Positions 1 through 35,959 of a DNA stretch of 64,000 nt are shown piece after piece. Origin of the DNA: a virus (lineage: Duplodnaviria; Heunggongvirae; Uroviricota; Caudoviricetes). Below the pieces are notes generated by a model. That model saw only the letters and a program-made list of their open reading frames with translations, was not told the origin of the DNA and did no database searches. A program made the position numbers and the translations under genes. The stretch spans positions 147,598 through 211,597 of IMG/VR virus record IMGVR_UViG_3300038393_000804; one strand, given 5' to 3'. Position 1 is the stretch's first letter, and each line of letters starts with the position of its first letter.

Positions 1-223
1 ATTAGTGATGGCGATGTAAGAGTAGGTAAGATTATTCGAACATACCGTAGTTCCGACTTGCCTGAGCGTTATGAGAGAGGGCCGTGGATGTGGATTAGCA
101 AGAATGAAGCCGAACCATTCATTGAAAAGAATACGGAGGCTAAATCCCTCTTGAAAAAATATGAATGGAATGTAAAATAGTAAGTTGGTACAATAGATAG
201 AGAGATTTACAGGGAGGCTTAAC

Positions 224-1118: not shown

Positions 1119-1363
1119 AAATTCTTTACTGAATAGAGAGTACGCATAAGAGAATTCCAAGACGTTGTAGGTGACCTCATGGTACAGGTGGGGTTAAATG
1201 CATGCCTAGAAATTACCAGCCTGGTCTGACGTTCTCTTATCAATGATAGGTATTAGATGAGTGGAGGAACCTATGGTTTCCTTTAGCTGCTAACCTGGGG
1301 CATGCACACGCTGATTCGAATCCTATCTTGTTTGTACTTTCTATTGGGTAAAGAATTTTTTTT
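1119..1363 (+). ncRNA. Candidate ~245-nt structured ncRNA
   Basis: Nested stems 1119-1129/1348-1358, 1132-1143/1334-1345, 1146-1154/1232-1240, 1245-1250/1322-1327; 8-bp loop-loop complement 1199-1206/1299-1306; ends in a T run. Confidence 0.55.
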
Positions 1364-1380
1364 ATTCAAGGAGTGATGGT

Positions 1381-1653
1381 ATGAAGAAGCTTCCAAAAGG
1401 AACGATTATCCGCATAGGGCAGAATAAAAGGAAATCTATTTCTATGGATGCAATTGGAATGGATTTTGAGTTGCCAAGGGATTTGGCCTGGGATGACCAT
1501 GCTAACATGGCAACGATTGTAAGAAAGCCAAAAGGATGCGGCTGGCTTGGCAGCGTAGTGTCTCACAGGCTAGACCCATATGGAGATAGGATTATTTCTA
1601 TTCCTTCTTCTAGTAATAAGGAAGCTGCTAGGCTGCTGGACAAGGAGTGGTAG
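1381..1653 (+). CDS. Small protein with shared C-terminal tag (copy 1)
   Basis: SD AAGGAGTGA; ends SNKEAARLLDKEW. Confidence 0.8.
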   Translation: MKKLPKGTIIRIGQNKRKSISMDAIGMDFELPRDLAWDDHANMATIVRKPKGCGWLGSVVSHRLDPYGDRIISIPSSSNKEAARLLDKEW

Positions 1654-1654
1654 A

Positions 1655-1873
1655 ATGTATTACAAAGGTCAAAGAGTCAAACGAATTAAGTATGTACACC
1701 CAGGATATAATGTTCCAGTTGGTATGACAGGAACCATTATAGAAGGAGAAGGAAAAGAAAGTCCTCGTATTAAATGGGACAATGGCGTAGAATGTCATTC
1801 TTTTCTATCATGTTTAGCTCCTGTATCTAGTAATAACAAAGGGGCTTCTACCCTATTGGACAAGGAGTGGTAG
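1655..1873 (+). CDS. Small SH3/KOW-like protein with shared C-terminal tag (copy 2)
   Basis: ATG 1655 after AAGGAGTGG; YKGQRVKR...GMTGTI...RIKWDNG; ends NNKGASTLLDKEW. Confidence 0.8.
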   Translation: MYYKGQRVKRIKYVHPGYNVPVGMTGTIIEGEGKESPRIKWDNGVECHSFLSCLAPVSSNNKGASTLLDKEW

Positions 1874-1875
1874 GT

Positions 1876-2172
1876 ATGTATGAATTAGGAGAGAAAGTAC
1901 TACTTACAGATGATTCAGAGTGGTACGAACAAAACAAAAGAGAAGGTGACAATGGAGAAGAATATGCTGTTGTCGGAACCATTGTGGGTAGATGTCACCA
2001 AGGAGAGATAGAAGGAAAGTATTCTAAACACTTTAAGCACTTTCAATATTCTGTCCTCTGGGAAGATGAAACCCAAGATGAATTATATTATCGCGATATA
2101 GATTTGATGTTGGCGGAAGCTCCTCCAGTAACAAATCAAGAAGCGAAAAAACGTTTAAGCAAGGAGTGGTGA
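1876..2172 (+). CDS. Small SH3-like protein with shared C-terminal tag (copy 3)
   Basis: YELGEKVLL...VGTIV...YSVLWED; ends TNQEAKKRLSKEW. Confidence 0.8.
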   Translation: MYELGEKVLLTDDSEWYEQNKREGDNGEEYAVVGTIVGRCHQGEIEGKYSKHFKHFQYSVLWEDETQDELYYRDIDLMLAEAPPVTNQEAKKRLSKEW

Positions 2173-2173
2173 G

Positions 2174-2482
2174 ATGGCAAGAAATAGACCGAGCAAGGAG
2201 ACGGCTAACTTTAAGGTAGGCGATATCATTACGCTACAGCCAAAGGCTTATTACATAAAGCAACTCGGCAGTTGGCAGACACCACAAGCTAGAATCTTAG
2301 ATGTGTTCTGGGACGACGGTGATTTCAAGACAGGATGGTGGTATGATATTCGCGTAGTGGCTCCAGAAGATTGGCCGCAGGATGCGCTAACTTATAGGAA
2401 CTCTTATCCTGAAGAAGACCTGATGTTTCCTCAAGCGAAAAACAATATGGAAGCAAAGCGATTGCTTTCAAAGGAGTGGTAA
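2174..2482 (+). CDS. Small SH3-like protein with shared C-terminal tag (copy 4)
   Basis: FKVGDIITL...ARILDV...WWYDIRV...YPEEDL; ends NNMEAKRLLSKEW. Confidence 0.8.
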   Translation: MARNRPSKETANFKVGDIITLQPKAYYIKQLGSWQTPQARILDVFWDDGDFKTGWWYDIRVVAPEDWPQDALTYRNSYPEEDLMFPQAKNNMEAKRLLSKEW

Positions 2483-2483
2483 G

Positions 2484-2777
2484 ATGAAAGTACGAATTAA
2501 AAGTATTTCTTCCACTAGCAAGTGGTATAAAAAAATGATAGGTTAAGTCTTTGATGTAGAAAAGAAATCTAATGGTGGCTATCGGGTAATTCCTAGTGAA
2601 GATAATGAGAAGGTTCTCCGCTTGGAACCTGATGATTATAACTACTCCGAGTTTGTACGTAGGATGAATGTTCCTATGGGCAATGGAGTAGGACTAGGTA
2701 TAACAGCAGAAGACGCCGTTGAAATTGCTATTGAATCAAATAAAGAAGCCGTTAATTTATTAAGTAAGGAGTGGTAA
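2484..2777 (+). pseudogene. Tag-family gene (copy 5) interrupted by an in-frame TAA at codon 21; absent from ORF track
   Basis: ATG 2484 to TAA 2777 is one 98-codon frame with a single stop at 2544-2546; MKVRIKSISSTSKWYKKMIG*VFDVEK...SNKEAVNLLSKEW. Confidence 0.75.
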
Positions 2778-2778
2778 C

Positions 2779-3039
2779 ATGCCACCAGAAAGACGTGACT
2801 CACAAGGCAATCGTTTTAAAGTTGGCTGGGTATATGAGTATAGCTTTCATAAGCTTGAGTTAATTAGTATGGCCCCAAACAAATGCGAAGGAACTTTTAG
2901 ACTTGTAGAAAACTACGGCAGCTTGTACGCAGGTTGGGAAGGCATTCTAACCTTTGACCGTGGGTTTACTCCATTGTACCTAAGCGAATCTTTAAAGAGC
3001 AATAAGGGCGCTGCAATGCTACTAAGTAAGGAGTATTGA
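2779..3039 (+). CDS. Small protein with shared C-terminal tag (copy 6)
   Basis: FKVGWVYEY; ends SNKGAAMLLSKEY. Confidence 0.8.
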   Translation: MPPERRDSQGNRFKVGWVYEYSFHKLELISMAPNKCEGTFRLVENYGSLYAGWEGILTFDRGFTPLYLSESLKSNKGAAMLLSKEY

Positions 3040-3040
3040 T

Positions 3041-3286
3041 ATGGCAGTCAATCTTAACAAAGAAAAGAAAAAGAAGTTTCCCTGGATAAGCTGGGGCACT
3101 TACTTCATGGTAGGTATACAAATTCTATTAATCCTGCTTCTAGCAATTGCAGTTGTCATGCTTGTTATTGCAGGTTTTAAACAACAGCCCATTATAACAA
3201 GTTGCGTTATTGGCTTTCTTGTTTTAATTTTCCCTGTTGGATATTTTGTTGTACATGTTTTAGGATGGAGGCCAGATGAATGGTGA
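3041..3286 (+). CDS. Two-TM membrane protein
   Basis: Two long hydrophobic stretches, basic N-terminus; SD provided by previous gene end. Confidence 0.7.
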   Translation: MAVNLNKEKKKKFPWISWGTYFMVGIQILLILLLAIAVVMLVIAGFKQQPIITSCVIGFLVLIFPVGYFVVHVLGWRPDEW

Positions 3287-3869
3287 ATAAAGAGTATGAT
3301 ATTATTCGCAAGATTATCCTGAAGAACTTTCTGATTGACCATAACATGGGTGGCTTTGTTGTAAATCCCGCCGTGGTTAAACAGTTGGAAGAACACTTCA
3401 GACAGAAGTTTGACAGCGAAAAGCTGAGCAACATATCCTCTAGCTGGGATGATAAGGTATGGGAACCATTTAAGTTAGATGAGTAAGGAAGTGATTGAAT
3501 GGGTAGAAGACAGGATGAGCACATCGCAGAAATTATGCAGTTAGCTCCGCCGCCAAATCCAGGCATTGTATATTTCTTTGAGGAGAAGACATTGAAGAAG
3601 TTGAACAACTTTGAACTAAATGCTCTTCGAAGAATCCTTGAGAACTATTATGTTCCAAGGATAAAGCCAGTCGAAGAATTCAGTGCTGGATTTAAATGCC
3701 CTGTTTGCAGAACAAGATTTAGCATAAAGGCGGAGGAATCATGATGAAAAAGAAAAAGCCAAAGGTAACTCCACCGCGAATCACTTGGGAGCGCAAGCCT
3801 ATGACTCAAGTGAAGAGCAGTGATAAAATATATTCAAGAAAAAATCAAAAGAAAAATTGGGAGGAATAA
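3280..3869 (+). CDS. Three coupled small hypothetical ORFs (3280-3486, 3499-3744, 3741-3869)
   Basis: Coupled starts and stops with SDs; 3741-3869 (MMKKKKPKVTPPRITWERKPMTQVKS...) is below the ORF-track cut-off. Confidence 0.6.
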
Positions 3870-7313: not shown

Positions 7314-7400
7314 GCTGCTGTAGTTCAGCGGTAGAATACTCCCCCAAGAGTCCACATCGACGGGGAGAGGTCGGAGGTTCGAATCCTCCTGGCAGCTCCA
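7314..7400 (+). tRNA. tRNA-like gene (Gly-like body, U73, encoded CCA) with 17-19-nt anticodon loop
   Basis: Acceptor GCTGCTG/TGGCAGC, D arm GTTC/GAAT, T arm GGAGG-TTCGAAT-CCTCC, 3' TCCA; CTCCCC/GGGGAG encloses CAAGAGTCCACATCGAC. Confidence 0.7.
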
Positions 7401-9542: not shown

Positions 9543-12500
9543 GTGACGCACGATTTATCGTTTGCTGTTGATACTAAACAGGAAGTCACTAATATTCCGT
9601 ACAATGTTTTTAGTACGGTACGTTTTACGCATCTGCATCTTCATACTCCATGGAGTTTGTTGGATGGATTCTGTCGGATTGATGACTTAATCGAGCTTGC
9701 CAAAGAATACGGAATGGATTCAATAGGTATTTCGGACCATGGTGTTTGTCATGGGCATATTGAATTCTATACGAAGGCGAAGAAGGCTGGATTAAAACCT
9801 ATTCTGGGTAACGAGATTTATCTCACACCGCACAGGACATGGAAGAAAGAGGAGTACGACAAGCAGCCTGGATTCTGGTTTGACAAAAAGAATCAAACTG
9901 GCTGGCGTCCAAATATGGCTCATATGCTTCTGATTGCAAGAACAAATGAAGGCTATGAGAACTTACTGGAACTGACCAGTCGTGCCCAGCTGGAGGGCTT
10001 CTATCGTAAGCCTCGCGCAGACTATGAACTGATTAAAAGATATGGCAAAGGAATTATTGCCACAACTGCTTGTCTCGGCGGAGAAGTTCCTCAGTTGATT
10101 CAAAGAGGCAGGTATAAAGTAGCGAAGAACCTGATTCGCTTCTATCAGAAATGTTTTGATGAATTGTATCTTGAGATTCAACCGTCAGACATGCCTGAAC
10201 AAATATTGGTCAATGAGGTTCTGAGACAATGGTCAGTCGAGATGAACATCCCGCTTGTAGCCACTTCAGACGCCCATATGCTACGCAAAGAAGAGAAGCC
10301 TATTCACGCTGCCTTAACAACAATTGGACGCAGTGAGGACGCTTCAGACATCTCTGTGTATGAGCATTGTTACTTCATGAGTGCTCAAGAGATGCTCGAC
10401 TTTGGCATCCCACATGAAGCACTAGAGAATGCGTACCAGATTTCTCAGAAGTGTAATGTGGAATTAGAACTGGGCGACATTAAGTTCCCTAAGTTTGATG
10501 TTCCATCTGGACATACATTTGATACCTACATTGCACAGCTATGTAACGTAGCCTTATTTGAATTAGCAATGGACAGAGATATCAACATTGTTGAGTACCA
10601 GGAACGGATGAACTATGAGCTTGATATTATTGCCAAGAAAAACATTTCAGCTTATCTATTAATCGTTTGGGATTATATTAAGTATGCGAAAGACAATGGG
10701 ATATTAGTAGGCCCAGGCCGTGGTTCTGGTGCTGGTTCTCTTGTCTGTTACCTGCTTCATATTACAAACTTAGACCCCATCAAATATGATTTGCTGTTTG
10801 AGCGTTTCATTAATCCAGAGCGACCTGGCTTCCCAGATATTGATACGGACTTCGACTACCTCAGACGACATGAAGTTATTGATTATGTTACAGAGAAGTA
10901 CGGAGCCGACCAAGTAGCACAGATTGGTACGTTCACTACCTTATCCACAAAAGCAGCATTCAAAGATATTGGCCGCGGTCTAGGCATTGACCACAACATT
11001 ATCAATGACATGAATAAGCTAATCCCTGTTCATCAAGGAAAGGTTATGTCCATTGAAGATGCGATGGAAGAAGTCGCGGACTTACAGCCGTATATCAGTC
11101 AGTATCCTGAACTGTTTGAGTTAGCCTCTAAGGTAGAGAAGCTTCCGCGTTCTGCATCTATCCATGCTTGTGGTATGTTAATCACGCCTGACCCAGTATC
11201 AAAGGCAGCTCCATTAATGCGTGGTAAGAACGGTGAGCGTGTTACCCAGTATGAAGGGCCAACGTTAGAGTCAATCGGATACATTAAGTTTGACTTCTTA
11301 GGTTTAAAGAACTTATCGGTTGTTGATATTGCCAGACGCCTTGTAAAGGAACGTCACGGCGTTGACATTGACCCAGATAGCTTAGAGCCTACAGACCCGA
11401 AAGTATTCCAGACCATTAAAGACGGATGGACTGACGGCGTGTTCCAGTTTGAGTCAGATGGTATGAAGAAGATGTTCAGAGGAATGAACAAGGTAGACTT
11501 CAACACACTGGTAGCTGGAAACGCATTGTATCGTCCAGGCCCGATGGATTATATTCCGCAATACCAGCGTCGTGCGAATGGTCAAGAAGACATTCCAGCT
11601 TTACATCCAGAGTATGATGCCATTACCAAAGAGACTTTCGGTATCATGATTTACCAAGAGCAGGTTATGATAGTGTCCCAACGGATGGCTGGATACTCGA
11701 AAGGCGAAGCGGACGTACTACGTAAAGCCGTAGGTAAGAAGAAGAAGGAAATCTTAGAGCCAGCTTTAGAGGAGCTGGAAGCAAAGATGATTGAACACGG
11801 CACACCACAGCACGTTGCCAAGCGTATATGTGATGACATCCGTCCGTTCGCAGGCTACGCGTTTAATAAGTCCCACGCGGCTTGTTATAGCTTCATTGCG
11901 TATCAGACTGCCTTCTTCAAGACGTACTATCCAATAGAGTTCATGACAGCTCTATTAACCATTGGTGCAGACAAGGAAGAAAAGGTTATTAACTACATCA
12001 ATGAATGTAAGCGAATGGGAATCAATATCCTGCCGCCTGACATTAATACATCAGGTGTAGGTTTTACCGTTGAAGGTAATGATATACGTTTCGGTTTAGC
12101 AGCTATCAAAGGACTAGGCGAAGCAGTAATATCTAATATTATGGAAGCAAGACCATATACAAGTCTGCAGAACCTGGTTGAAACACTTCCGAAAAAGCAG
12201 CTTAACAAACGGAGCATTCAAGTCCTAGCAAGGTCTGGTGCGCTGGACGAGCTGGGCAAGGATGCATTGAACCGTATGGACATCCTGCAGCAATTGTACA
12301 TGATTCGTGGAGATAAGGATGACTTGTCTGACGAAATCAATGGATTCACTGATAAGGTTAGACTGGAAGCAGAGAAGGAATTACTGGGGCTTTATGTCTC
12401 TGGTAATCCTCTCTCCGATGTTTCTCAGCCAGTGAATTGGGATTACCTGGGCGACTACGAGAACGTCAACACGGGCGGCATCTTGACTTCATTCAAAGTG

Positions 12501-12740
12501 ATGCCGACTAAGAAAGGTGACACAATGGCATTTATTAATGTCGATACATTAGAAGGCAATAAGCGCATGGTCTTATTCCCTGATGTATATGCTACGGTTG
12601 CAGACCAGCTGAAGAAAGACCTTGTGGTCAAGCTGACTTGCTACACGAAGTATAACCCACAATATGATGAAAGAAGTATCATCGTCAAGAAGATAACTAT
12701 TCCCAAACGGGTTAACAAACATCTTCTTACACCTCAGTAA
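9543..12740 (+). CDS. dnaE: DNA polymerase III alpha subunit (DnaE type, C family)
   Basis: PHP HLHLHT/SDHG/TSDAH, GPGRGSGAGS, FERFINPER, PDIDTDF, KFDFLGL, FNKSHAACY, C-terminal OB; 1065 aa. Confidence 0.97.
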   Translation: MTHDLSFAVDTKQEVTNIPYNVFSTVRFTHLHLHTPWSLLDGFCRIDDLIELAKEYGMDSIGISDHGVCHGHIEFYTKAKKAGLKPILGNEIYLTPHRTWKKEEYDKQPGFWFDKKNQTGWRPNMAHMLLIARTNEGYENLLELTSRAQLEGFYRKPRADYELIKRYGKGIIATTACLGGEVPQLIQRGRYKVAKNLIRFYQKCFDELYLEIQPSDMPEQILVNEVLRQWSVEMNIPLVATSDAHMLRKEEKPIHAALTTIGRSEDASDISVYEHCYFMSAQEMLDFGIPHEALENAYQISQKCNVELELGDIKFPKFDVPSGHTFDTYIAQLCNVALFELAMDRDINIVEYQERMNYELDIIAKKNISAYLLIVWDYIKYAKDNGILVGPGRGSGAGSLVCYLLHITNLDPIKYDLLFERFINPERPGFPDIDTDFDYLRRHEVIDYVTEKYGADQVAQIGTFTTLSTKAAFKDIGRGLGIDHNIINDMNKLIPVHQGKVMSIEDAMEEVADLQPYISQYPELFELASKVEKLPRSASIHACGMLITPDPVSKAAPLMRGKNGERVTQYEGPTLESIGYIKFDFLGLKNLSVVDIARRLVKERHGVDIDPDSLEPTDPKVFQTIKDGWTDGVFQFESDGMKKMFRGMNKVDFNTLVAGNALYRPGPMDYIPQYQRRANGQEDIPALHPEYDAITKETFGIMIYQEQVMIVSQRMAGYSKGEADVLRKAVGKKKKEILEPALEELEAKMIEHGTPQHVAKRICDDIRPFAGYAFNKSHAACYSFIAYQTAFFKTYYPIEFMTALLTIGADKEEKVINYINECKRMGINILPPDINTSGVGFTVEGNDIRFGLAAIKGLGEAVISNIMEARPYTSLQNLVETLPKKQLNKRSIQVLARSGALDELGKDALNRMDILQQLYMIRGDKDDLSDEINGFTDKVRLEAEKELLGLYVSGNPLSDVSQPVNWDYLGDYENVNTGGILTSFKVMPTKKGDTMAFINVDTLEGNKRMVLFPDVYATVADQLKKDLVVKLTCYTKYNPQYDERSIIVKKITIPKRVNKHLLTPQ

Positions 12741-12965
12741 GAGAAAATTTTGTTGAGAAAATTCAAGCGGTAATCGTTGACAAAAAAGTTCTCAGGGACT
12801 GTATTGACGATACTTTTTGAATAGGTTTAGATTATTCTTAGACACCATATGTGGAGGAAGTAGTTACCTTAGCAACACTATGTAGTAGCCCTTGTTAAAA
12901 ATAGAGGGGTGAGCAGAGCGATTTGCTTGCTCCTTTTTATCTGCTTAATCATGGGAGTGGAAGAG

Positions 12966-20033: not shown

Positions 20034-20171
20034 CAAGCTCCCAAATTGCGTCCCATTATAGAGCAATTTTTTATTATTTTTTGGCGCGAAAAATGGAAAG
20101 ACTATTAGGGGTGTAAAAAATTTTTTTTGGGGTTCTGTAAAAAGAATCCCTTTCTCTTTGGAGGAATGAGT

Positions 20172-20360
20172 ATGGCTTACTACAGACCTAGCAACAATGG
20201 CTACTTCACAATATCTACTAGTAGTAATTCAACGACGACTGGTTATTATTACACGACCAATAATTATTATGGGTACAGTGGAACGTACACAGCTAAGGGT
20301 AAACAAGAGTTTAAAAATAAGGAAGTAAAACATCTATTAGAAAAGGAAAGAGGATGGTAA
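20172..20360 (+). CDS. Tyr/Thr/Asn/Ser-rich low-complexity protein with tag variant (copy 7)
   Basis: SD GGAGGA; ...TTTGYYYTTNNYYGYSGTY...KNKEVKHLLEKERGW. Confidence 0.7.
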   Translation: MAYYRPSNNGYFTISTSSNSTTTGYYYTTNNYYGYSGTYTAKGKQEFKNKEVKHLLEKERGW

Positions 20361-20982: not shown

Positions 20983-21894
20983 ATGGAATTTCGTATTGAT
21001 TCTGATGTTCTAAATGTAGAGGCTGTTGCACCTGCTCAAGCAATTGACTGGGGTGTAAGTGTGGTTCAAGCTCCACAGGTTTGGTCTTTGACTCGTGGCG
21101 AAGGCGTGAAGGTAGCTATCCTTGATACAGGGATTGACTATAATCACCCTGACCTTAAGGGCAATATCAAAGCTGGCAAGAACTTCACTTCTGCTAACGT
21201 GAATGACTACATGGACAGACAGGGACATGGTTCACACTGCGCTGGTATTATTGCTGGTGTAGATAACAACTTTGGTGTTGTTGGTGTGGCTCCTAAGGCT
21301 GAGCTTTACATTGGTAAAGTACTTGGCGACAACGGTTCTGGAGACCTTAATGCAATTGTGAAAGGTATCGACTGGGCAATTAGCCAAAGAGTTGATGTCA
21401 TTTCTATGTCATTAGGTTGCGGTGCCGACCCTGGTGAAGCTTTCCACGCAGCTTTCAAACGTGCTCATGATGCTGGTATCATCATTGTAGCCGCTTCTGG
21501 TAACGAGAACTCACACACTGGCTGGCCTGCTGCTTACGACGAAGTAATCGCTGTAGCTGCTGTTGACCAAACTTTCGGGCGTGCGAACTTCTCTAACTTC
21601 GGACCAGAGGTTGACGTTGCAGCTCCTGGTGTTGACATCTTATCTACATACAAGAATGGTCAGTATGCAAAGCTTTCAGGTACATCTATGGCTACTCCAA
21701 TGGTGTCTGGTGTTATTGCACTAGTTGTTGGATACTGCCGCAAGCTGGGCCTTCAAGCTACTCCTGATAAAATCGTACAAATGATTAGTGAGCGTTCTAT
21801 TGACATGGGTAACCAAGGCCACGACGACATGTTCGGTAACGGACTTATCAACGTGATGCGCCTGTTAAAAGGCAATAACGACGGCTTACGCTAA
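20983..21894 (+). CDS. Intracellular subtilisin-like serine protease (S8)
   Basis: Catalytic D (ILDTG), H (HGSHCAG), oxyanion N (ASGNE), S (GTSMATP); no signal peptide. Confidence 0.95.
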   Translation: MEFRIDSDVLNVEAVAPAQAIDWGVSVVQAPQVWSLTRGEGVKVAILDTGIDYNHPDLKGNIKAGKNFTSANVNDYMDRQGHGSHCAGIIAGVDNNFGVVGVAPKAELYIGKVLGDNGSGDLNAIVKGIDWAISQRVDVISMSLGCGADPGEAFHAAFKRAHDAGIIIVAASGNENSHTGWPAAYDEVIAVAAVDQTFGRANFSNFGPEVDVAAPGVDILSTYKNGQYAKLSGTSMATPMVSGVIALVVGYCRKLGLQATPDKIVQMISERSIDMGNQGHDDMFGNGLINVMRLLKGNNDGLR

Positions 21895-21900
21895 TCATGA

Positions 21901-21929
21901 AAGAGTCACTCTTCGGAGTGGCTTTTTTA
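21901..21929 (+). terminator. Intrinsic terminator
   Basis: GAGTCACTC-TTCG-GAGTGGCTT + T tract. Confidence 0.8.
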
Positions 21930-22136
21930 TTATGCTCAAAAAGGAAGTGAATTAAATGCCGAAGTACACTGTCAGTACAAATAGAATAGGTGTTAATGTG
22001 ACGGCTAAGAATGAGGATGAAGCAATTGAAAAAGGTTATGCTCAGATTAAAAAATTCATAAACCTAGGAGTCATGACTCTAACTGCTGAGAAACAAGACA
22101 GCGCTCTAAAGGAAATACGTAAAGGGGAGTGACAAT

Positions 22137-22379
22137 ATGGGTTATCCGTATAGAGTAGGAGAAGAAGTTATTATTATAAAGAATACATCAGGACATGCCT
22201 TCCAGATTGGGGAGAAGGTAACCCTTAATACAGTAGAAAAATCTGACTCAGGTTCTTATTGGTCTATGTCAGCTCTCGGTCTTGGTGAACTTGACTGGTG
22301 GTTCAATGCTACGGAATGTATGCCCGTTGATTATAAATCCAATCAAGAGGCAAAACAGTTATTAGAAACAGATTATTAA
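22137..22379 (+). CDS. SH3-like protein with shared C-terminal tag (copy 8)
   Basis: YRVGEEVII...FQIGEKVTL; ends SNQEAKQLLETDY. Confidence 0.8.
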   Translation: MGYPYRVGEEVIIIKNTSGHAFQIGEKVTLNTVEKSDSGSYWSMSALGLGELDWWFNATECMPVDYKSNQEAKQLLETDY

Positions 22380-22392
22380 AAGGCGGTGTTAT

Positions 22393-23270
22393 ATGGAGCC
22401 ATTATTATTAATTGTAGTAGCAGCCATTATCGCAGTATGGTTGTTTAAAAGTTTCCCTGGTCTTACAGTCATAGCTTTTTTCTTATTCGCCATGTATGCG
22501 ATTGAACTAGGAAGCCATGAGAAGATTCCGTTAATGACGAACTTTATGAAAGGCGTAAACATAATGTTCAATAGTAAGTTTTAGGAGGTGGTAAGATGTC
22601 ATTGAAAGAAAAGCTTGTTGAATGGAAAGAGCTTAGTGATATGAAGGATAATGCTGATGACCATACAAGGTGTCCGAGATGCCGCGAACAATTATACTTT
22701 TGTGATTGTTGTGCAGTGTTGGCTGATGAAATTCTTCTTAATCACTATGATGAAATTATAGACAAGGCAGAAGAGATGGAGTAGGAGGTAGAGGATGGCA
22801 CGCTGGACGAATCGACCTTCTTGGTGGAATGACCCTATCACACAGAGGCAAGAGCGAGCCATCGCTACCATTACTCAGTGGCTGGGTCATCAATTCACTG
22901 GCAGGGTCAAAGGGGATGCAATGGGATTCATTGGTGAGTACTATGAATTAGCCAAAGAGGTTCGTGACAATGCTGATGTGAATGGCGTTACGAATCGAAG
23001 CATGGCAAGTTTTATATTGGAGGCGGAAGGACCATGGGGTTAAACGTAAGCGAAGCGATGCTACTTAAAGCGCAGTATGAGTTGGAACAATTCCAGCCTG
23101 ATGATAGCGCATTTGATATTGTTGATGTGATTATCACTGATGAAAGCTGGGATGATTATACCCGCGGCTATCTTACATGTAAGTTGGAACAGTGGGGCGA
23201 GTCATTGGACGGCAAGGATTTACTGGAGCAGTTCATAAACTTTGTCGAAGTAATCCTCTCACGAAATTGA
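22393..23270 (+). CDS. Four small hypothetical ORFs (22393-22584 TM, 22596-22784 Cys-rich, 22795-23043, 23034-23270)
   Basis: Each preceded by an AGGAGG-type SD. Confidence 0.65.
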
Positions 23271-23424: not shown

Positions 23425-23859
23425 ATGAGTTTATCTCAAACATTTGTAGTAGGACGTTTAACAAAGGACCCAGAGGTTCGCAATGTAATGGTAGGAGGAC
23501 AAGAAACAGCAGTTGCTAACTTTGCAGTGGCTTGTGACCGTGATTACGGAGAAGGCACAGACTTCTATGATGTAGTAGTTTGGAGAAAGCAAGCTGAGAA
23601 TGTCGGCAAGTACCTAACCAAGGGTCGTGAGGTATTAGTAACAGGACGCATGCAAAAGCGTACTTACACAGCGAAGACACCAGAAGGTGCTGAATACCCA
23701 CGCGATGTATGGGAGTTGCACGCTGATAAGGTTCAGTTCTTAGGCAGCGCGAAAGATTCTGGCGGCGGTCAAGGTGGCGGAGGATATCAACGTCAAACAC
23801 CACCACCACAAGAACCTGCTTATACACCAGACCCATACGCAGGCGGAGCACCTTTCTAA
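23425..23859 (+). CDS. ssb: Single-stranded DNA-binding protein
   Basis: VGRLTKDPEVR, ANFAVACDR, FYDVVVWRKQAE, GREVLVTGR; Gly/Pro tail ending PF. Confidence 0.95.
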   Translation: MSLSQTFVVGRLTKDPEVRNVMVGGQETAVANFAVACDRDYGEGTDFYDVVVWRKQAENVGKYLTKGREVLVTGRMQKRTYTAKTPEGAEYPRDVWELHADKVQFLGSAKDSGGGQGGGGYQRQTPPPQEPAYTPDPYAGGAPF

Positions 23860-23906
23860 TAGGTGTTCCTAACCCTTCGGGGGCAATGTATTTAAGGGGG
23901 ATTTAG

Positions 23907-24227
23907 ATGTCTGACCAACGTAAGGCGAGAGCCGAATTAAAGCAAGGGCTTCATCAATTCTTAATGCAATTATACGTGAATTATTCACAGAGTCATGGGC
24001 AAGACGAGGCCAAGGAACTCGTTCAAGAATGTATCGACGAAGAGTATAAATATTTCAATCCAGATGGATTAAAGAAATCTTCCGCAAAGGAAGAGTTGTC
24101 TGCTAAGATTAAAGAACTAACAGACAAAATTGATTCGCTTAAAGACTACGACATGCAGTTATACTATGCCGAGAAAGTAGATGCAATGCAGGCTGCACTC
24201 GACGCATTAGATATAAAAATTAGCTAA
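23907..24227 (+). CDS. Hypothetical helical protein
   Basis: SD AAGGGGG; between ssb and recA. Confidence 0.7.
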   Translation: MSDQRKARAELKQGLHQFLMQLYVNYSQSHGQDEAKELVQECIDEEYKYFNPDGLKKSSAKEELSAKIKELTDKIDSLKDYDMQLYYAEKVDAMQAALDALDIKIS

Positions 24228-24250
24228 CTATACGGGGAGTTGTTTGGTAT

Positions 24251-25309
24251 ATGTCATTAGACAAAGTTTTAGCTCAAATTAATAAGCAGTTTGGTGCTGG
24301 CACAGCGCAAATCCTAACACCTGATTACGTTCGTGAAATCAAAGTGTTTAACTCTGGTTCACTAACATTAGACCTAGCACTAGGACGAGGTGGGATTCCA
24401 AGAGGTCGTTTGGTTGAAGTATTCGGCCCGACATCAGCTGGTAAAACCACACTAGCATTACTACACGCTGCGGAAGTGCAACGTGCAGGAGAAGGATATG
24501 TAGCATTTGTCGATGCGGAGCATACATTTGACCCTGTACTTGCCGCTGAATACGGTGTAGATTTAGGCTCATTGATTTACATTGACCCAGAAACTGCTGA
24601 GAATGCGATTGATACTACCGACGCTCTGATTCGTTCAGGCGAAGTTCGCTTAATCATTGTTGACTCTGTATCGGCTTTAACACCATCAAAGATTGTTGAG
24701 TCATCTGTTGAACAACAAACGATGGCACTGTTAGCCCGATTCATGAGTACTACTTGCCAGAAGTTAAATGGCCCAGCTTACCACCACGATTGTACTGTGT
24801 TATTTATTAACCAGATTCGTGAAAAGCCAGGTGCTTTCAGCCCAGCTGGTACGCCTACAACAACTTCAGGTGGTCGTGCGTTACCATTCTACAGCTCAGT
24901 CCGTTTGAATGTACGTTCTGGTGAACTGTTCAAGAACAAAGCTGGAGACCAAATTGGTCATCAGATGAAGGTCAAAGTTGTTAAGAACAAAGTAGGTATG
25001 CCAGGTAAAGAGGCAACCTTCAGCTTGTTCTATGGCAAAGGTGTTGACCGTGTGGATGAGATTTCTCAGCTGGTATTATTAGCTGGTATCATCCGTCAAG
25101 CTGGTGCTTGGTTCCGCTATGAAGATGAGAACGGTGAACCATTAGAACGCGATGGTGAGATTTGCAAATGGCAAGGCCGCGCAGCGATGACTGAATTCCT
25201 TCGTCAACATCCAAGCTTCTTAATTGAACTTGAGAACAAGCTTCGTGGTGTGGAACTTGAAGCACCAGATATAGCAGAAGACGAGAAGGTTTCAGAAGAA
25301 GGTTACTAA
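24251..25309 (+). CDS. recA: RecA recombinase
   Basis: GSLTLDLALG, Walker A GPTSAGKT, IIVDSVSAL, FINQIREK, GGRALPFYSSVRL, KVVKNKV. Confidence 0.97.
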   Translation: MSLDKVLAQINKQFGAGTAQILTPDYVREIKVFNSGSLTLDLALGRGGIPRGRLVEVFGPTSAGKTTLALLHAAEVQRAGEGYVAFVDAEHTFDPVLAAEYGVDLGSLIYIDPETAENAIDTTDALIRSGEVRLIIVDSVSALTPSKIVESSVEQQTMALLARFMSTTCQKLNGPAYHHDCTVLFINQIREKPGAFSPAGTPTTTSGGRALPFYSSVRLNVRSGELFKNKAGDQIGHQMKVKVVKNKVGMPGKEATFSLFYGKGVDRVDEISQLVLLAGIIRQAGAWFRYEDENGEPLERDGEICKWQGRAAMTEFLRQHPSFLIELENKLRGVELEAPDIAEDEKVSEEGY

Positions 25310-25317
25310 TTAAATAC

Positions 25318-25349
25318 GGGGAGTTGCCTGCGGGTTGCTCCCTTTTTTT
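25318..25349 (+). terminator. Intrinsic terminator
   Basis: GGGGAGTTGCC...GGTTGCTCCC + T7. Confidence 0.65.
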
Positions 25350-25370
25350 ATAACAGGGGGAGAGTCAAAC

Positions 25371-26270
25371 ATGCCACAAGCTGATAAAGAGTACGACAAA
25401 ATCATTCACCAAATCATGATGGAAGGAGTCTGGGACAGAGGGGAACCTGTGCGGACGAAATGGTCTGACGGTACACCTGCTTACACCCAGAGTATCCTGA
25501 ATGCTCAAATGCATTTCGATGGAACAGAAGTACCTATTCTGACAAGGAAGAAGGTAGCAGAAAGAACCGCTACGAAAGAGATGCTTTTGTTCTGGCAAAT
25601 GAAGACCAATAGAGCAGAAGACTTTCATAACATGGGTGTGACCATCTGGGATGAATGGATTAAAGAGGATGGAACTATTGGGCCAGCATACGGTGCTCAA
25701 CTTGGTAAGCCCTGCCGCGTTGTTCCGAAGAGTCAATATGACATTACGCTTCATGACCCTAAGAAAGAAATCATTGAGTTTGATGTGAACAACTGGTTGA
25801 TTGACCAAGTAGACTATCTTATCTGGCAATTGAAAACGAATCCTACCAGCCGCCGTCACATCGTAAGTCTTTGGAACATTACAGACTTGGATGAAATGGC
25901 TTTGACTCCTTGCGTATGGAACTCACAATGGATTGTGCAGAACCGTAAGCTTCACTTAATCGTAGGAGTAAGAAGCAATGACATGGCCTTGGGCAATCCA
26001 TTCAATGTCTACCAGTACTACGTGTTGCAGCGTATGATGGCTCAGGTATGTAAGTATGATATCGGGACATTAACATTCAACATTAACAATGCCCACATCT
26101 ATGAGCGTCATGTGAATGGATTGGAAGAGCAAATGAGGAATCAGGAATTCCCTGCTCCGACATTATGGTTGAATCCAAACATCACAAACTTCTATGACTT
26201 CACTATGGATGACATTAAGTTGTTTGATTATATCAGCGGACCAACTATCCCATTCGAGGTGGCTATCTAA
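25371..26270 (+). CDS. thyA: Thymidylate synthase
   Basis: IWDEW, GPAYG, SRRHIV, MALTPCV, RSNDMALGNPFN, HIYERH; no intron. Confidence 0.96.
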   Translation: MPQADKEYDKIIHQIMMEGVWDRGEPVRTKWSDGTPAYTQSILNAQMHFDGTEVPILTRKKVAERTATKEMLLFWQMKTNRAEDFHNMGVTIWDEWIKEDGTIGPAYGAQLGKPCRVVPKSQYDITLHDPKKEIIEFDVNNWLIDQVDYLIWQLKTNPTSRRHIVSLWNITDLDEMALTPCVWNSQWIVQNRKLHLIVGVRSNDMALGNPFNVYQYYVLQRMMAQVCKYDIGTLTFNINNAHIYERHVNGLEEQMRNQEFPAPTLWLNPNITNFYDFTMDDIKLFDYISGPTIPFEVAI

Positions 26271-27004: not shown

Positions 27005-27970
27005 ATGGTAGGAGAACTTCTTATCTACACCAGTATTTCTACGGTAGCTACAATCATTCCAGTATGGAAGTACCGTCGAGCATTGGTTAAGTTATTGCAC
27101 TTACCAGGCGTTGGTTGGGTATTAAACCTAGCGTATGCGTTTGGTATGAGCTGGCTGTTATTGCTGGTCTTCCACATGCAGTCATCTATCGCAGGCTTAG
27201 CTAACATGCTTCACAGTATTGTCTATGGTGTATGGTTGTACTTCTTGAAGAAGAAATACGATGGTGAGAAAATGGTGGCAGCAGCGGTTTAATCCGCTGT
27301 TGTTTCCTACTACCAAATAACTTAAGGTGGTGTAACATGTACGAATATTATATAAAGTTCTGGGGTCAAGCAGAGCCTAGGATAAAAGAAAAGCTTGGTG
27401 ACTTCTATCAGGAAGATGGCTACTTCTTCTCGACTAAAGAAGAAAGAGCTGAGTTTAAGGAAGCTATTAAGCAAGCAGCAGGCGACCAGATTATTGTCTT
27501 TGCTGAATACGAAGGACCAGATGTAAGGCTTCACACAGTCGTTCTAGTGGACGCAAGATTCAAGGGCAAGCGTTACACATTTGAATATGATTACGGCCCA
27601 GGCTACCCTGTAGAATCGGCTGAATATATGTTTGAAGATGGTAACTATTCATGCAACTGTAACTTATCAAGGTTCATTCAAGATAAGTATCCTGAGTTCC
27701 CTGAACTGGATTGTGTTGGCGATGAAGAAGGAAATGAAATTGACTATGTATTTACAGTAGAACAAAGGGAGGTTCATTAATATGTTATCAAGAAGCACAG
27801 TTCAGAAGATGCCGCAGCCAGTGATTGTTCCTGAAACGGGCATCATATTAGATAAAGAAACACAACTCTGGGAAGTTTGGTACAAGGGTGTCCGCTTTGC
27901 AGAACTAGACGAATTGAAAGAAGCGCATGACAGATTGCAGAAACTTTTAGCACTGGACACCACGAAATAA
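27005..27970 (+). CDS. Three hypothetical ORFs (27005-27292 membrane, 27337-27780, 27782-27970)
   Basis: SD-led, closely spaced. Confidence 0.65.
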
Positions 27971-28006
27971 TCATGTAACAATATAGAGTGGAAACTAAAG
28001 GAGGTT

Positions 28007-31791: not shown

Positions 31792-32130
31792 ATGGAGTTC
31801 ACAACTGTTTATCGGTATCCTGATGGTATCAATGCCAATAACTTTGGGGCTATTTCTAAAATGCTGCTGAAGGGTACGTCTGTAGAGTTTAATTGTGGGG
31901 CTAGTCAGTATGGCTCACGAGGTAGTGCAGAGAACAATGTGCAATTTCAGAAGCATGTGCAACTATGGGTAGGCTATATCCAAAGCCGCATGAAAGAAGA
32001 CCATGGGTTTACTGATAAGTTGGAATACGATTATTGCTCTAAAGATGATTGGACAAAGGTGCGTGTTCATTCACCTATGGATTTTAAAAGCAACATTAAA
32101 GCAAAACGATTATTAAGTAAAGAATATTAG
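31792..32130 (+). CDS. Hypothetical protein with shared C-terminal tag (copy 9)
   Basis: SD GGAGGG; ends SNIKAKRLLSKEY. Confidence 0.8.
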   Translation: MEFTTVYRYPDGINANNFGAISKMLLKGTSVEFNCGASQYGSRGSAENNVQFQKHVQLWVGYIQSRMKEDHGFTDKLEYDYCSKDDWTKVRVHSPMDFKSNIKAKRLLSKEY

Positions 32131-32141
32131 GAGGGATTATT

Positions 32142-32420
32142 ATGGCAGTAGTAAACATGTTAGACATTTCAACAGGACACATTACAGAGAGTACAAATGA
32201 TTGGCTAATGACAGCTGGTACAACAGTAGGATTCCTTGTTTATCCTAGAGAATATGGCTGGTTGATTCCTGTATTAGACTATCAAGAGGAAGTTCATATT
32301 ACAAATATCCCGCGCGACCTTATTGCCGTTCTTTATTATGCAAAGGGATTGGGATGTGAATGGATTAATCTAGACAAGGATGCTGACTTTGAAAAGGAGT
32401 TGCCGACGTATGAATGGTAA
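32142..32420 (+). CDS. Hypothetical protein
   Basis: SD AGGAGGG; MLDISTGHIT...GCEWINLDKDA...LPTYEW. Confidence 0.7.
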   Translation: MAVVNMLDISTGHITESTNDWLMTAGTTVGFLVYPREYGWLIPVLDYQEEVHITNIPRDLIAVLYYAKGLGCEWINLDKDADFEKELPTYEW

Positions 32421-32685
32421 TAAAGTAGAGTGTCCATTGTGCGGCGCTGATATGCCATTAACAGAGTTGGAATCTGCTCCCAATGGGAGAGAAAACAAAT
32501 CATATATATGGATATGTAATGAGTGCCCTGGCATCCTATTAGAGTGGGTGGACTACAAAGATACGGATGCATTTAACAAGTACATTAACTTTCACGAAGG
32601 AGTGATTAAGTGTCATGGAGAACACGGGTATGTCGGAGAAACAACTAACAATAAAAATATTAAGCGACTTGACTCAGACTATTGA
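32410..32685 (+). CDS. Zinc-ribbon protein with tag variant (copy 10)
   Basis: CPLC...CNEC; ends NNKNIKRLDSDY. Confidence 0.7.
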   Translation: MNGNKVECPLCGADMPLTELESAPNGRENKSYIWICNECPGILLEWVDYKDTDAFNKYINFHEGVIKCHGEHGYVGETTNNKNIKRLDSDY

Positions 32686-33460
32686 CCAGCTGCAATATCA
32701 CATTAGTATGCAAGACTCATTCTTGCGTGAACATTTCCGTCAGTATGCAAGTTATGGGCCTAGCACCCATGGGTTATTGCAGACTATTAAGACGGACATT
32801 TTAAATTTGCAGAAGATAACGTTATCTAATAAAGATAATGCGCATCTATTATCTCCAGTGCAGGAGGAGCCAAGACCACAGCAGCAACGGGCTATTAGAT
32901 ATCAGCCTGACCAATGGGGATATGCTGAGTTCTAGGAGGAATTAAAATGGATATGAATTGCCCTGAATGCTTTCGGTATTCAGTGGGTGGATGGCTATGT
33001 AGAAGATGTATTAATGAAAAGATGGATGCCATGAAATCTGAATATAGAGAATGGCTAGAAGAAATAGAGGTGCTTCCAGATGAAGAGAATCGTTACGGTT
33101 GAAAACTTATACCAACAGGCAATGAAGAACTCAAGGAGAGCGTCGGGTATTGGGTCCGCCCGTACCATGCGACGTGGTCACGCCGTTTATGAAGTTATCA
33201 TAGACAGGAATGCACGCATTGCTTATCTCAAACACTATGGAACAGTGACCATCAAGTACCACTTGCAAGACAGAGAGTTGCTGGAATGGTACGGTGAAGG
33301 GGTGAGCGACAGAGATTCTATGAATACATTTGTGAGTTGCCTTCAAGAAGACAGATATTATTTCCGTTATGGAAGTAAGATGGGATTCCAGATGGAACAC
33401 GAAGGGAGATTGATTCCAATTGAAGAGGCGAATCAAAGCATATGGGTGGGACTGTCCTGA
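32615..33460 (+). CDS. Hypothetical ORFs (32615-32935, a short CPEC ORF near 32947-33100, 33080-33460)
   Basis: Contiguous SD-led ORFs. Confidence 0.55.
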
Positions 33461-33719
33461 TTGTGGTGAAGCTCATACTCCAGACGACTGGAATGAAATG
33501 ACGCTGAGATACATCCAACAGGAAATCGACACCACTTACACGATGGAACGGATGACCAAGATTGAAGATTCAAAGATGGATGGTGAAGTGTTCTTCATTT
33601 GTCCATCTTGCAGCAGCTTTAATTACAACTACAATCACTACTTTAATAAAGTTTATGTGGAGGTAGAAGTAGAAAGCAACAAGGAAGCTGCCAAATATAT
33701 ATTAGAGGAGAGTTGGTAA
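33420..33719 (+). CDS. Zinc-finger protein with tag variant (copy 11)
   Basis: CPDC..HT...WNE...CPSC; ends SNKEAAKYILEESW; paralogue of 49745-49948. Confidence 0.75.
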   Translation: MKRRIKAYGWDCPDCGEAHTPDDWNEMTLRYIQQEIDTTYTMERMTKIEDSKMDGEVFFICPSCSSFNYNYNHYFNKVYVEVEVESNKEAAKYILEESW

Positions 33720-35212: not shown

Positions 35213-35702
35213 TTTGGGTTATCGTAATTCAGTTTATTATTATCTTGATTATGGGATGGATGATTTGGGACTCACAGAAAGCAATAAGAAACCTGCTTGA
35301 TATGTGGGCGGAAGAACAGAACAAGAAGTGGGTGCAAATGATGAAAGAGTCAGGAGCAGAGATAATTTATTTAGGAGGCGAAAAGAAATGAGCCTAGATA
35401 TATGGCTAACAGCAGTAGTAGAACATGAAGTAGTAAGTAGAAACATTACACACAATCTAGGCAAGATGTGGGTAGAGGCAGGTATCTATGATGCGCTCTA
35501 CAGGTCAGAAGGAAAGAGGGCAATGGATGTCCTTCCTGAGCTAGAGAATGGCCTTGTTCTTATGGTAAATGAGCCAGAAAGATTTAAAAAGTTCAGCGCA
35601 TCCAATGGATGGGGAACATACGAGCAAGCGGTGCCGTGGCTGGCAGACCTGATTGAGAAGTTTAAGGAATACCCTGAGGGTAAGATAGGAATATCTAGAT
35701 GA
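35209..35702 (+). CDS. Two small ORFs (35209-35391 TM, 35388-35702)
   Basis: ATGA couplings; SLDIWL...NITHNLGKMW. Confidence 0.65.
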
Positions 35703-35959
35703 GTATCTTTCCTAAAGCATCAATCAACAGACCTTTGGAGGTGGGGCAGCACATCGTTATTGATGTGTCCCAGGTTCCAGAGTTTAAAAGATTTTATTAT
35801 CCTGGCGTGACAGATGTAGATTTTACATTGATTCAGATACTTAACTATGAGAGCGGAACATTCTATGTTGTCTCAGATGATGTTCATGTATTCTCTATCG
35901 AGATTGAAATGCCTGACACGAATGCAGAAGCAATAGGCTTCTTGGATAATGAATATTAG
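35699..35959 (+). CDS. Beta-rich small protein with shared C-terminal tag (copy 12)
   Basis: LEVGQHIVID; ends TNAEAIGFLDNEY. Confidence 0.75.
   Translation: MSIFPKASINRPLEVGQHIVIDVSQVPEFKRFYYPGVTDVDFTLIQILNYESGTFYVVSDDVHVFSIEIEMPDTNAEAIGFLDNEY

Follow-up and report, generated by a model that had tools for sequence, protein, structure and literature searches.

A shared C-terminal peptide at the cassette junctions of small-gene arrays in a Bacillus-type jumbo phage: a possible docking tag overlapping a ribosome-binding site and a proposed recombination joint

The capsid targeting sequence of phage T4, the cargo-loading peptides of encapsulins and the encapsulation peptides of microcompartments are common to unrelated cargo and are recognized by one reader; they measure about 10-20 residues and frequently form an amphipathic helix behind a flexible linker; the T4 sequence is N-terminal and cleaved, while the encapsulin and microcompartment peptides adjoin shell genes. 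Other proteins bind a hub through free C-terminal tails, in which acidic residues precede a hydrophobic or aromatic end, such as T4 gp43, gp55 and gp33 on the gp45 clamp, proteins with the bacterial clamp motif QL[SD]LF, and SSB and T7 gp2.5 with their acidic tips ending in Phe. In adaptor-box families (poxvirus ankyrin/PRANC proteins with an F-box-like element, SOCS-box proteins), which often occur in tandem, variable bodies carry one short, unvarying helical box at the C-terminus, by which they all dock on the same machine. At the DNA level, T4-type phages contain promoter-early stem-loop (PeSL) cassettes, intergenic promoter-terminator units that border small non-essential genes and serve both expression and homology for whole-gene gain, loss and shuffling in hyperplastic regions (PMC2839356, PMC4122927). 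Here we describe a gene end from a stretch of 64,000 nucleotides (nt), called the window, which covers positions 147,598-211,597 of IMG/VR record IMGVR_UViG_3300038393_000804 (a single virus, 264,094 bp, rated complete), an uncultured jumbo phage of Bacillus type. Six consecutive plus-strand genes at 1381-3039, t1 to t6 (Table 1), all end in N-x-x-A-x-x-L-L-x-K-E-[W/Y]-stop, an ending referred to as the tag. We place it among the terminal peptides that several proteins share for docking or targeting, here joined to a PeSL-like cassette junction.

The six gene ends and the spacing of their consensus are present in the sequence exactly as given in an earlier sequence-based prediction (the original prediction). 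As start codons of t1-t6 we took the ATG after each AAGGAG, which leaves 1-2 bases from each stop to the next ATG. The core motif, written as a strict regular expression, was matched 17 times in the six-frame open reading frames (ORFs) of the whole 264-kb genome (274,744 residues); in 15 of the 17 matches a stop follows after 4-8 residues, and these 15 are without exception on the plus strand at 113.9-181.3 kb of the genome. Positions 4-8 from the stop make up about 7.6% of the ORF residues, which by our own arithmetic corresponds to a binomial P of about 2e-15, and the enrichment of the tag at C-termini over internal positions was thereby confirmed. A looser pattern added a 16th tagged gene; the strict and looser patterns together define a set of at least 16, in each of which the stop follows the motif at 4-8 residues. 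Among 71 small plus-strand genes at 113-200 kb (crude calls), 18 end in an aromatic residue and 13 of these belong to the tagged family. A terminal aromatic residue as a habit of the whole proteome was rejected, since the overall enrichment is slight and the excess comes mostly from this family. A zinc-ribbon protein at window 32380-32685 ends in T-N-N-K-N-I-K-R-L-D-S-D-Y, a degenerate tag, and further eroded members may exist, for example at genome 122275-122481 (ending in S-N-E-E-M-L-E-L-V...E-N-Y). The strict tag pattern at the DNA level matched 3 times in IMG/VR and 47 times in 185,579 prokaryote genomes (one per species), all by chance or out of frame, and at this stringency no host protein with the tag ending was found. 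Neither the comparative paper on phage 0305phi8-36 (PMC2147016) nor full-text literature searches yielded a description of the tag.

The original prediction had read the synonymous variation at conserved tag positions as a sign that selection acts on the peptide. For codons 1-9 this is correct: in the six tandem tags, identity is 0.62 at codon positions 1 and 2 and 0.32 at position 3, Leu is encoded by TTA, TTG, CTT, CTA and CTG, Ala by all four codons, and Ser from both codon boxes. Codons 1-9 are under peptide-level selection. For K-E-[W/Y] the argument fails, as AAG GAG is fixed in the tandem tags and nucleotide identity over K-E-W-stop (codons 10-12 and the stop) reaches 0.86. In our reading of the sequences, the tag would form a helix of three turns that starts with an S/T-x-x-E capping box and brings positions 1, 4, 8 and 12, along with 7, to the same side. 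A conserved, exposed helix on a flexible linker that is common to many proteins is most simply explained as a docking peptide for one partner.

Relatives were found in contigs and in cultured phages. The DNA polymerase III alpha of the phage is 60-61% identical to those of the Bacillus jumbo phages vB_BauM_KLEB27-3, vB_BceM_WH1 and Edson, and soil and rhizosphere metagenomes contain the same DNA as the window, no RNA data set being listed among the public runs that contain it. For the t4 protein, a search of 5.8 billion clusters gave one homologue only (47% identity), on a 25-kb JGI contig (L004). This contig is syntenic with the window, with an operon for a ubiquitin-like (Ubl) system, a tagged gene, NT5C, transfer RNAs (tRNAs), a tagged array, a two-helix membrane protein and a 41-residue basic protein, followed by TerD, TerC and a vWA gene and onward to Pol III alpha; it carries ten tagged genes, in an order and number unlike those of the window. 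Nine tags, with D-x-S-F or a similar end, are found on a 247-kb ENA contig (L006). On short contigs the tags end in E-E-A-W (L007), in D-P-W or D-A-F (L008), or in L-L-E-D-D with no aromatic residue (L009). The whole clade has in common [S/T]-N-x-x-A-x-x-L-L and, after it, a short stretch of polar or acidic residues, with 3 to 14 residues from the core motif to the stop. K-E and the free aromatic residue are local flavours, and each phage shares its flavour across its different bodies. The K-E and the free aromatic end, which the original prediction had made part of its tag, are hence not kept throughout the clade. Orthologues keep the tag at a body identity of 38-68%. Phage WH1 (L005) has at least 21 small genes in four arrays (11246-12837, 21192-22407, 23437-26033 and 27436-28412), whose tails, N-x-x-small-x-x-x-[L/M/F]-K-x-[E/D] plus 3-4 residues, are likely a cousin of the tag. 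Searches of the phage collection with the window DNA and the t3 protein gave no match, and back-translated searches of IMG/VR found no relatives.

Compared with the T4, encapsulin and microcompartment peptides, the tag is likewise a short peptide common to otherwise unrelated proteins; however, there is no shell gene, the neighbours are replication and nucleotide-metabolism genes rather than virion genes, and the cargo consists of small domains. A capsid targeting sequence of the T4 type was rejected, as that peptide is N-terminal and the tag C-terminal. With the hub-binding tails the tag shares the free C-terminal peptide, and some relatives' tags end in D-P-W, D-A-F or D-x-S-F, whereas it has neither Gln nor a clamp consensus, and what is conserved in it is mainly a helix that precedes the tip. 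Two motifs of this group were dismissed: for the bacterial beta-clamp motif (Q-L-[S/D]-L-F or Q-x-x-L-x-x-F) the window tags have no Gln at the required place and no clamp gene is detectable in the phage, and an SSB-type tip (a run of Asp, then [I/L]-P-F-COOH) differs from the K-E-W or K-E-Y of the window, only some relatives having acidic residues, Pro or Ala and then an aromatic residue. The adaptor-box families resemble the tagged proteins in their variable bodies and constant C-terminal helix, and here a Ubl conjugation operon lies next door, but there is no sequence similarity and the tag is much shorter. As in PeSL cassettes, the border repeat works in expression and in gene loss (a breakpoint described below, 1654>1876, lies in the repeat in one contig); unlike in PeSL cassettes, the repeat consists of a Shine-Dalgarno site, a stop and a start that overlap the upstream coding end. 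No promoter- or terminator-like site was found on the plus strand within 1381-3300, so that a PeSL unit with promoter and stem-loop terminator was rejected and the array reads as one operon. The suggestion that no phage system of this kind has been described therefore holds in so far as the tag matches no described family, while short terminal peptides common to unrelated proteins are known elsewhere.

The best reading, to which we give about an even chance, joins a modular docking tag to a cassette junction in one portable gene end with three overlapping jobs, namely docking peptide, ribosome-binding site and recombination joint. In the first, small proteins of several body families have a flexible linker appended, and after it a short amphipathic helix ([S/T]-N-x-x-A-x-x-L-L and 3-8 further residues, polar or acidic and in many cases with an aromatic end), which most likely would plug them all into one common partner; the array would then present variable small binder domains with one constant docking tail. 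In the second, AAG GAG TGG plus the stop acts in this phage as a Shine-Dalgarno site coupling translation of the next cassette. In the third, the 10-17 identical bases at every junction would give homology, through which whole cassettes may be lost, gained or reordered with reading frames intact. That the helix binds a partner, and which partner, is what we infer. By its position only, the Ubl operon just upstream (six Prok_Ub domains, JAB, ThiF) is a candidate reader, and the host clamp is another. Co-folding of t3, with alignment, against the 183-residue E2-like candidate, a 252-residue protein and the 305-residue ThiF/E1 gave a score of 0.00 (mark 0.32) and is evidence neither way. A wider version, which we consider rather unlikely, is a phage adaptor family in which fast-evolving binders grip different host or phage targets, the constant helix wires all of them to one hub (Ubl machine, sliding clamp or protease), and the tag end is a self-propagating junction (Shine-Dalgarno site, stop, start) through which the phage population could add, drop and reorder adaptors by recombination.

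If the tails instead bound each other, the helices of co-translated paralogues would bundle into a hetero-oligomer displaying many small domains. Tight translational coupling suggests matched product amounts, and one flavour per phage is expected if the tags must fit mutually. However, a helix of about three turns has a small hydrophobic face, and tagged genes are also scattered singly over 70 kb; we regard such bundling as unlikely.

The bodies in front of the tag were compared after trimming the tails. An all-versus-all BLASTP search gave no pair better than E = 0.06, whereas hhalign matched the t3 and t4 families with a probability of 92% (E 6e-7), which makes these two bodies remote paralogues; the statement that the bodies are not alignable thus applies at the BLASTP level but not to t3 and t4. 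The t5-type body did not match the t3 family (hhalign probability 0.4%), and single-sequence profiles of the t1, t2, t6 and 22137-22379 bodies gave no significant match to it, in tests of little power. Against Pfam and PHROGs, neither the six array proteins nor the others scanned gave anything over threshold, a PDB sequence profile search gave no significant match, and Protein Atlas look-ups gave leads at the fold level only. In the AlphaFold2 model of t3 (21 sequences), a beta barrel has a predicted local distance difference test score (pLDDT) of 93-96 up to residue 80, and residues 81-98, with a helix at 87-94, one of 52-56. Foldseek found weak SH3-like matches to this model (SPbeta YorP, Tudor, chromo, CPH and MIB/HERC2 domains; PDB 2HEQ, 2DK3 and 3DKM), the best being YorP at E 0.024, with MIB-HERC2 2DK3 at E 0.3 and 24% identity, template modelling (TM) scores of 0.46-0.53 and no Pfam family over threshold. 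The Atlas model of t4 is SH3/Tudor-like over residues 7-88, so that t4, by this model and by profile comparison, shares the weak likeness of t3 to the SH3 barrels of MIB/HERC2, CPH, Tudor-like and YorP proteins, and the t2 body is probably such a barrel as well. As the bodies are mostly small barrels of a peptide- or nucleic-acid-binding kind, they suggest variable binders with one constant plug. In the AlphaFold2 model of the 31792-32130 protein, an alpha/beta fold with two long helices has a pLDDT of 66-83 and the tail helix (102-110) one of 44-53. Together with a four-Cys zinc ribbon, a low-complexity body and the t5 type, whose distinct body is common to a gene at genome 123674-123985, the tag is found on several body types, with isoelectric points of 4.1-9.7. 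The idea of varied cargo under one tag is supported by this range, and has to be qualified for t3 and t4, which are remote paralogues, and for the barrel fold that t2 probably shares with them.

Alternatively, the tagged genes could be one old, fast-diverging paralogue family, with the helix as a structural and best-conserved part of an SH3/chromo-like fold (compare Sso7d and chromodomains). The barrels of t3, t4 and probably t2 and the remote homology of t3 and t4 would agree with this, the fold matches include chromodomains, and chromo-like folds do carry a C-terminal helix. Against it speak the predicted structures, in which the helix is not integral to one fold (tail pLDDT 44-56 in both models, bodies 66-96), the alpha/beta, zinc-ribbon and low-complexity bodies that bear the same tag, and the varying length of the linker from the last strand to the helix. 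In addition, a t3-family profile run against 1.84 billion representatives retrieved 47 proteins: 16 are single-domain with the tail, four are single-domain and tail-less, ending soon after the last strand, and 27 are longer, mostly multi-domain proteins with the barrel and without the tail; two of the tail-less homologues were checked and are complete genes inside their contigs. The low tail pLDDT, the tail-less homologues and the several body types indicate that the tail behaves as an appended C-terminal module, and a structural helix seems improbable.

The tag might also be a signal of turnover or timing, that is, a degron or degron shield for a host protease or adaptor, or a nascent tunnel peptide that favours re-initiation. 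It is strictly C-terminal and beside the stop, the genes lie 1-5 nt apart, and C-terminal peptides are the usual protease signals of bacteria. Nevertheless, it does not appear to resemble the known ClpXP or tail-specific-protease signals, and a motif-to-stop distance of 3-14 residues across the clade fits a tunnel peptide poorly, so we hold out little prospect for a signal of this kind.

The docking reading has to be separated from the use of the same codons in translation. K-E is AAG GAG in every tag with a start codon 1-5 nt downstream, and AAGGAG lies 7-8 nt before that start, at all six array junctions ahead of an ATG, within the 5-10 nt of a coupling-type Shine-Dalgarno site. Accordingly, the K-E-W codons double as the next gene's ribosome-binding site. 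Counted over this phage and its closest relative, all 14 tags with a start close behind them have GAG for Glu, against a genome-wide GAG share of 0.35 (P of about 4e-7, own arithmetic). AAA GAA is used in the only canonical tag (31792-32130) that is followed by a gene with a Shine-Dalgarno site of its own. In phage WH1, the tail keeps K-x-E even where the Shine-Dalgarno site sits after the stop, from which it is probable that the charged pair belongs to the peptide motif, which the phage also uses as ribosome-binding site.

A purely nucleotide-level constraint, in which the gene end is kept as start region of the next gene and as recombination joint and the peptide has no function, can be followed through the same data. 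The invariant AAG GAG and the 0.86 identity of K-E-W-stop would be expected from it, as would the TCT TTT TAA/G end in four of four tags of L006 and a cassette deletion that falls at a junction. How such a constraint can mimic a tag is seen in an unrelated small-gene array (contig L060, 188-912), where three consecutive genes share the ending L-x-Y-[E/D]-[I/V]-[F/Y], an artefact that arises wholly because their last 14 nt overlap the following gene, which begins with a conserved MK[Y/S]F. Since codons 1-9 of the tag described here overlap nothing, this explanation does not apply to them; their third positions are near-random, with Asn, Ala and Leu-Leu kept through different codon families. The 31792-32130 gene keeps K-E-Y despite the separate Shine-Dalgarno site, and WH1 keeps a hydrophobic residue along with K-x-E. 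The constraint consequently accounts for the last three to four codons only, and as an explanation of the whole tag it is very unlikely.

Evidence on the junction as recombination joint came from contigs of four metagenome runs, compared over 1300-3300. In a contig of run X9 (2,592 nt, depth 6.7), base 1654 is joined directly to 1876, by which t2 is exactly removed and t1, its tag, the Shine-Dalgarno site and the start of t3 are left intact. A second X9 contig begins at 1876, and run X8 retains t2. At the t1/t2 and t2/t3 junctions the same 17 nt are repeated exactly, with ATGTAT after them; for other pairs of junctions the common stretch is 7-12 nt. The deletion fits the differing cassette orders in L004. 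A contig of run X9 is only about 86% identical to t3 (window 1995-2134; 20 differences in 140 nt), which points to a second, diverged strain or a relative in the same soil sample.

Several points weigh against a docking tag fused to a cassette junction. No tool showed binding and no partner was identified, and the tag is short, with a small hydrophobic face (Ala, Leu, Leu and the aromatic residue). The extreme C-terminus varies from one related phage to another and lies within the region where translation of the following gene starts; with Ser-Phe fixed as TCT TTT before the stop in L006, constraint on the nucleotides, rather than co-evolution with a reader, may account for some of the flavour of each phage. 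Part of the tag sharing within the array is common descent, given the remote paralogy of t3 and t4. The alpha/beta model is of moderate confidence and was built on a two-row alignment, and the t2 deletion is seen in one contig at depth 6.7, which extends only 30 nt past the joint. The docking or address tag of the original prediction thus stands as a peptide that is selected as such, strictly C-terminal and appended, and has to be reduced where its last three codons form a Shine-Dalgarno site, its aromatic residue is not universal and its partner was not identified.

That the tag plugs proteins into the phage's own Ubl conjugation machine, as substrate receptors or as substrates, is least probable: the poly-Ubl, JAB and ThiF/E1 operon does end about 30 nt before the first tagged gene here, in L004 and in L006, and WH1 has ThiF plus arrays with the related tail, but the co-occurrence lies in one clade and is not independent, no tag Lys is conserved across relatives, and the C-terminal residue is variable, unlike the ends adenylated by E1 enzymes. 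A Ubl-conjugation substrate motif (hydrophobic-K-x-E) was rejected, as the acceptor Lys is not conserved, the L008 and L009 tags have no Lys, and the Lys of the window lies within the Shine-Dalgarno site.

Table 1. Tagged genes of the window and the untagged gene that closes the array (positions in the window)
Feature	Position	Strand	Product length	Gene end	Remarks
w0 (3' part)	1..180	+			tagged; start 164 nt upstream of the window; first gene after ThiF/E1
t1	1381..1653	+	90 residues	NKEAARLLDKEW	AAGGAG at 1642-1647 is the Shine-Dalgarno site of t2
t2	1655..1873	+	72 residues	NKGASTLLDKEW	body with weak SH3-like Pfam matches
t3	1876..2172	+	98 residues	NQEAKKRLSKEW	SH3-like (MIB/HERC2- or YorP-like) barrel, flexible linker, short helix
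t4	2174..2482	+	102 residues	NMEAKRLLSKEW	SH3/Tudor-like barrel, remote paralogue of t3
t5	2484..2777	+	97 codons	NKEAVNLLSKEW	in-frame TAA at 2544-2546
t6	2779..3039	+	86 residues	NKGAAMLLSKEY	end encoded by AAG GAG TAT TGA; orthologue at L004 10379-10642
untagged two-helix membrane protein	3041..3286	+			last gene of the array; homologues beside the arrays of L004, L007 and L008
tagged gene	20127..20360	+		NKEVKHLLEKERGW	low-complexity Tyr/Thr/Asn-rich body; start codon uncertain
tagged gene	22137..22379	+	80 residues	NQEAKQLLETDY	next gene with separate Shine-Dalgarno site
tagged gene	31792..32130	+	112 residues	NIKAKRLLSKEY	alpha/beta body; K-E encoded by AAA GAA, next gene with own Shine-Dalgarno site
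tagged gene	33420..33719	+	99 residues	NKEAAKYILEESW	body with two CxxC pairs (zinc ribbon)
tagged gene	35699..35959	+	86 residues	NAEAIGFLDNEY	looser match

The tag of w0 is a variant, N-T-E-A-K-S-L-L-K-K-Y-E-W followed by N-V-K-stop, and orthologues of w0 stand immediately after ThiF in L004 (6810-7157) and L006 (1925-2263). For t5, the 97-codon frame was used rather than the 51-residue ORF with a TTG start. Its in-frame TAA follows an A7 run by three codons, and the L004 orthologue has Met at this place; the TAA is also present, with zero differences, in a contig from an independent soil sample (run X8). It could be a recent nonsense allele, or the gene could be expressed from an internal start. 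A tRNA-like gene at 851-922 scores 31.4 bits against the Rfam tRNA model and has a 6-nt anticodon loop, CUAUAA; the aligned L004 gene is a normal tRNA-Tyr(GTA) that differs in the anticodon arm. ARAGORN reported two further tRNA-like genes with irregular anticodon loops (978-1062 and 7314-7400). A suppressor tRNA for the TAA of t5 is unsupported, as the odd loop of the 851-922 gene contains no UUA anticodon.

Other genes accompany the tagged ones. The two-helix membrane protein stands at one array edge wherever an edge is visible in the relatives (window 3041-3286, L004 10927-11160, L007 160-357, L008 135-377). A very basic protein of 41-45 residues occurs with tagged arrays (window 3741-3869, L004 11160-11285, L008 1583-1720, L009 4824-4955); it has a K-rich start and then a T-W-x-x-x-P-x-T-x-V core, is conserved, and matches no family. 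A gene for an SPFH/Band-7-type membrane scaffold lies just downstream of tagged genes at genome 115090-116112 (L011 2091-3113) and in L006 (5252-6250).

Roughly one in five small genes of the phage's central 70 kb carries an ending that is not described in any database, and the numbers are similar in its relatives. Should the tail prove to be a docking tag, identifying its reader would place many phage proteins now called hypothetical in one pathway at once, and the tail could be used as a portable tag to direct other proteins there. Bench tests are possible, since there are cultured relatives with related tails (Bacillus phages WH1, Edson and KLEB27-3), WH1 being usable as a laboratory model. 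The same 12 codons as peptide motif, ribosome-binding site and recombination joint would be a compact case of overlapping codes, and they offer a concrete mechanism by which phage accessory-gene arrays may stay expressed while they are shuffled.

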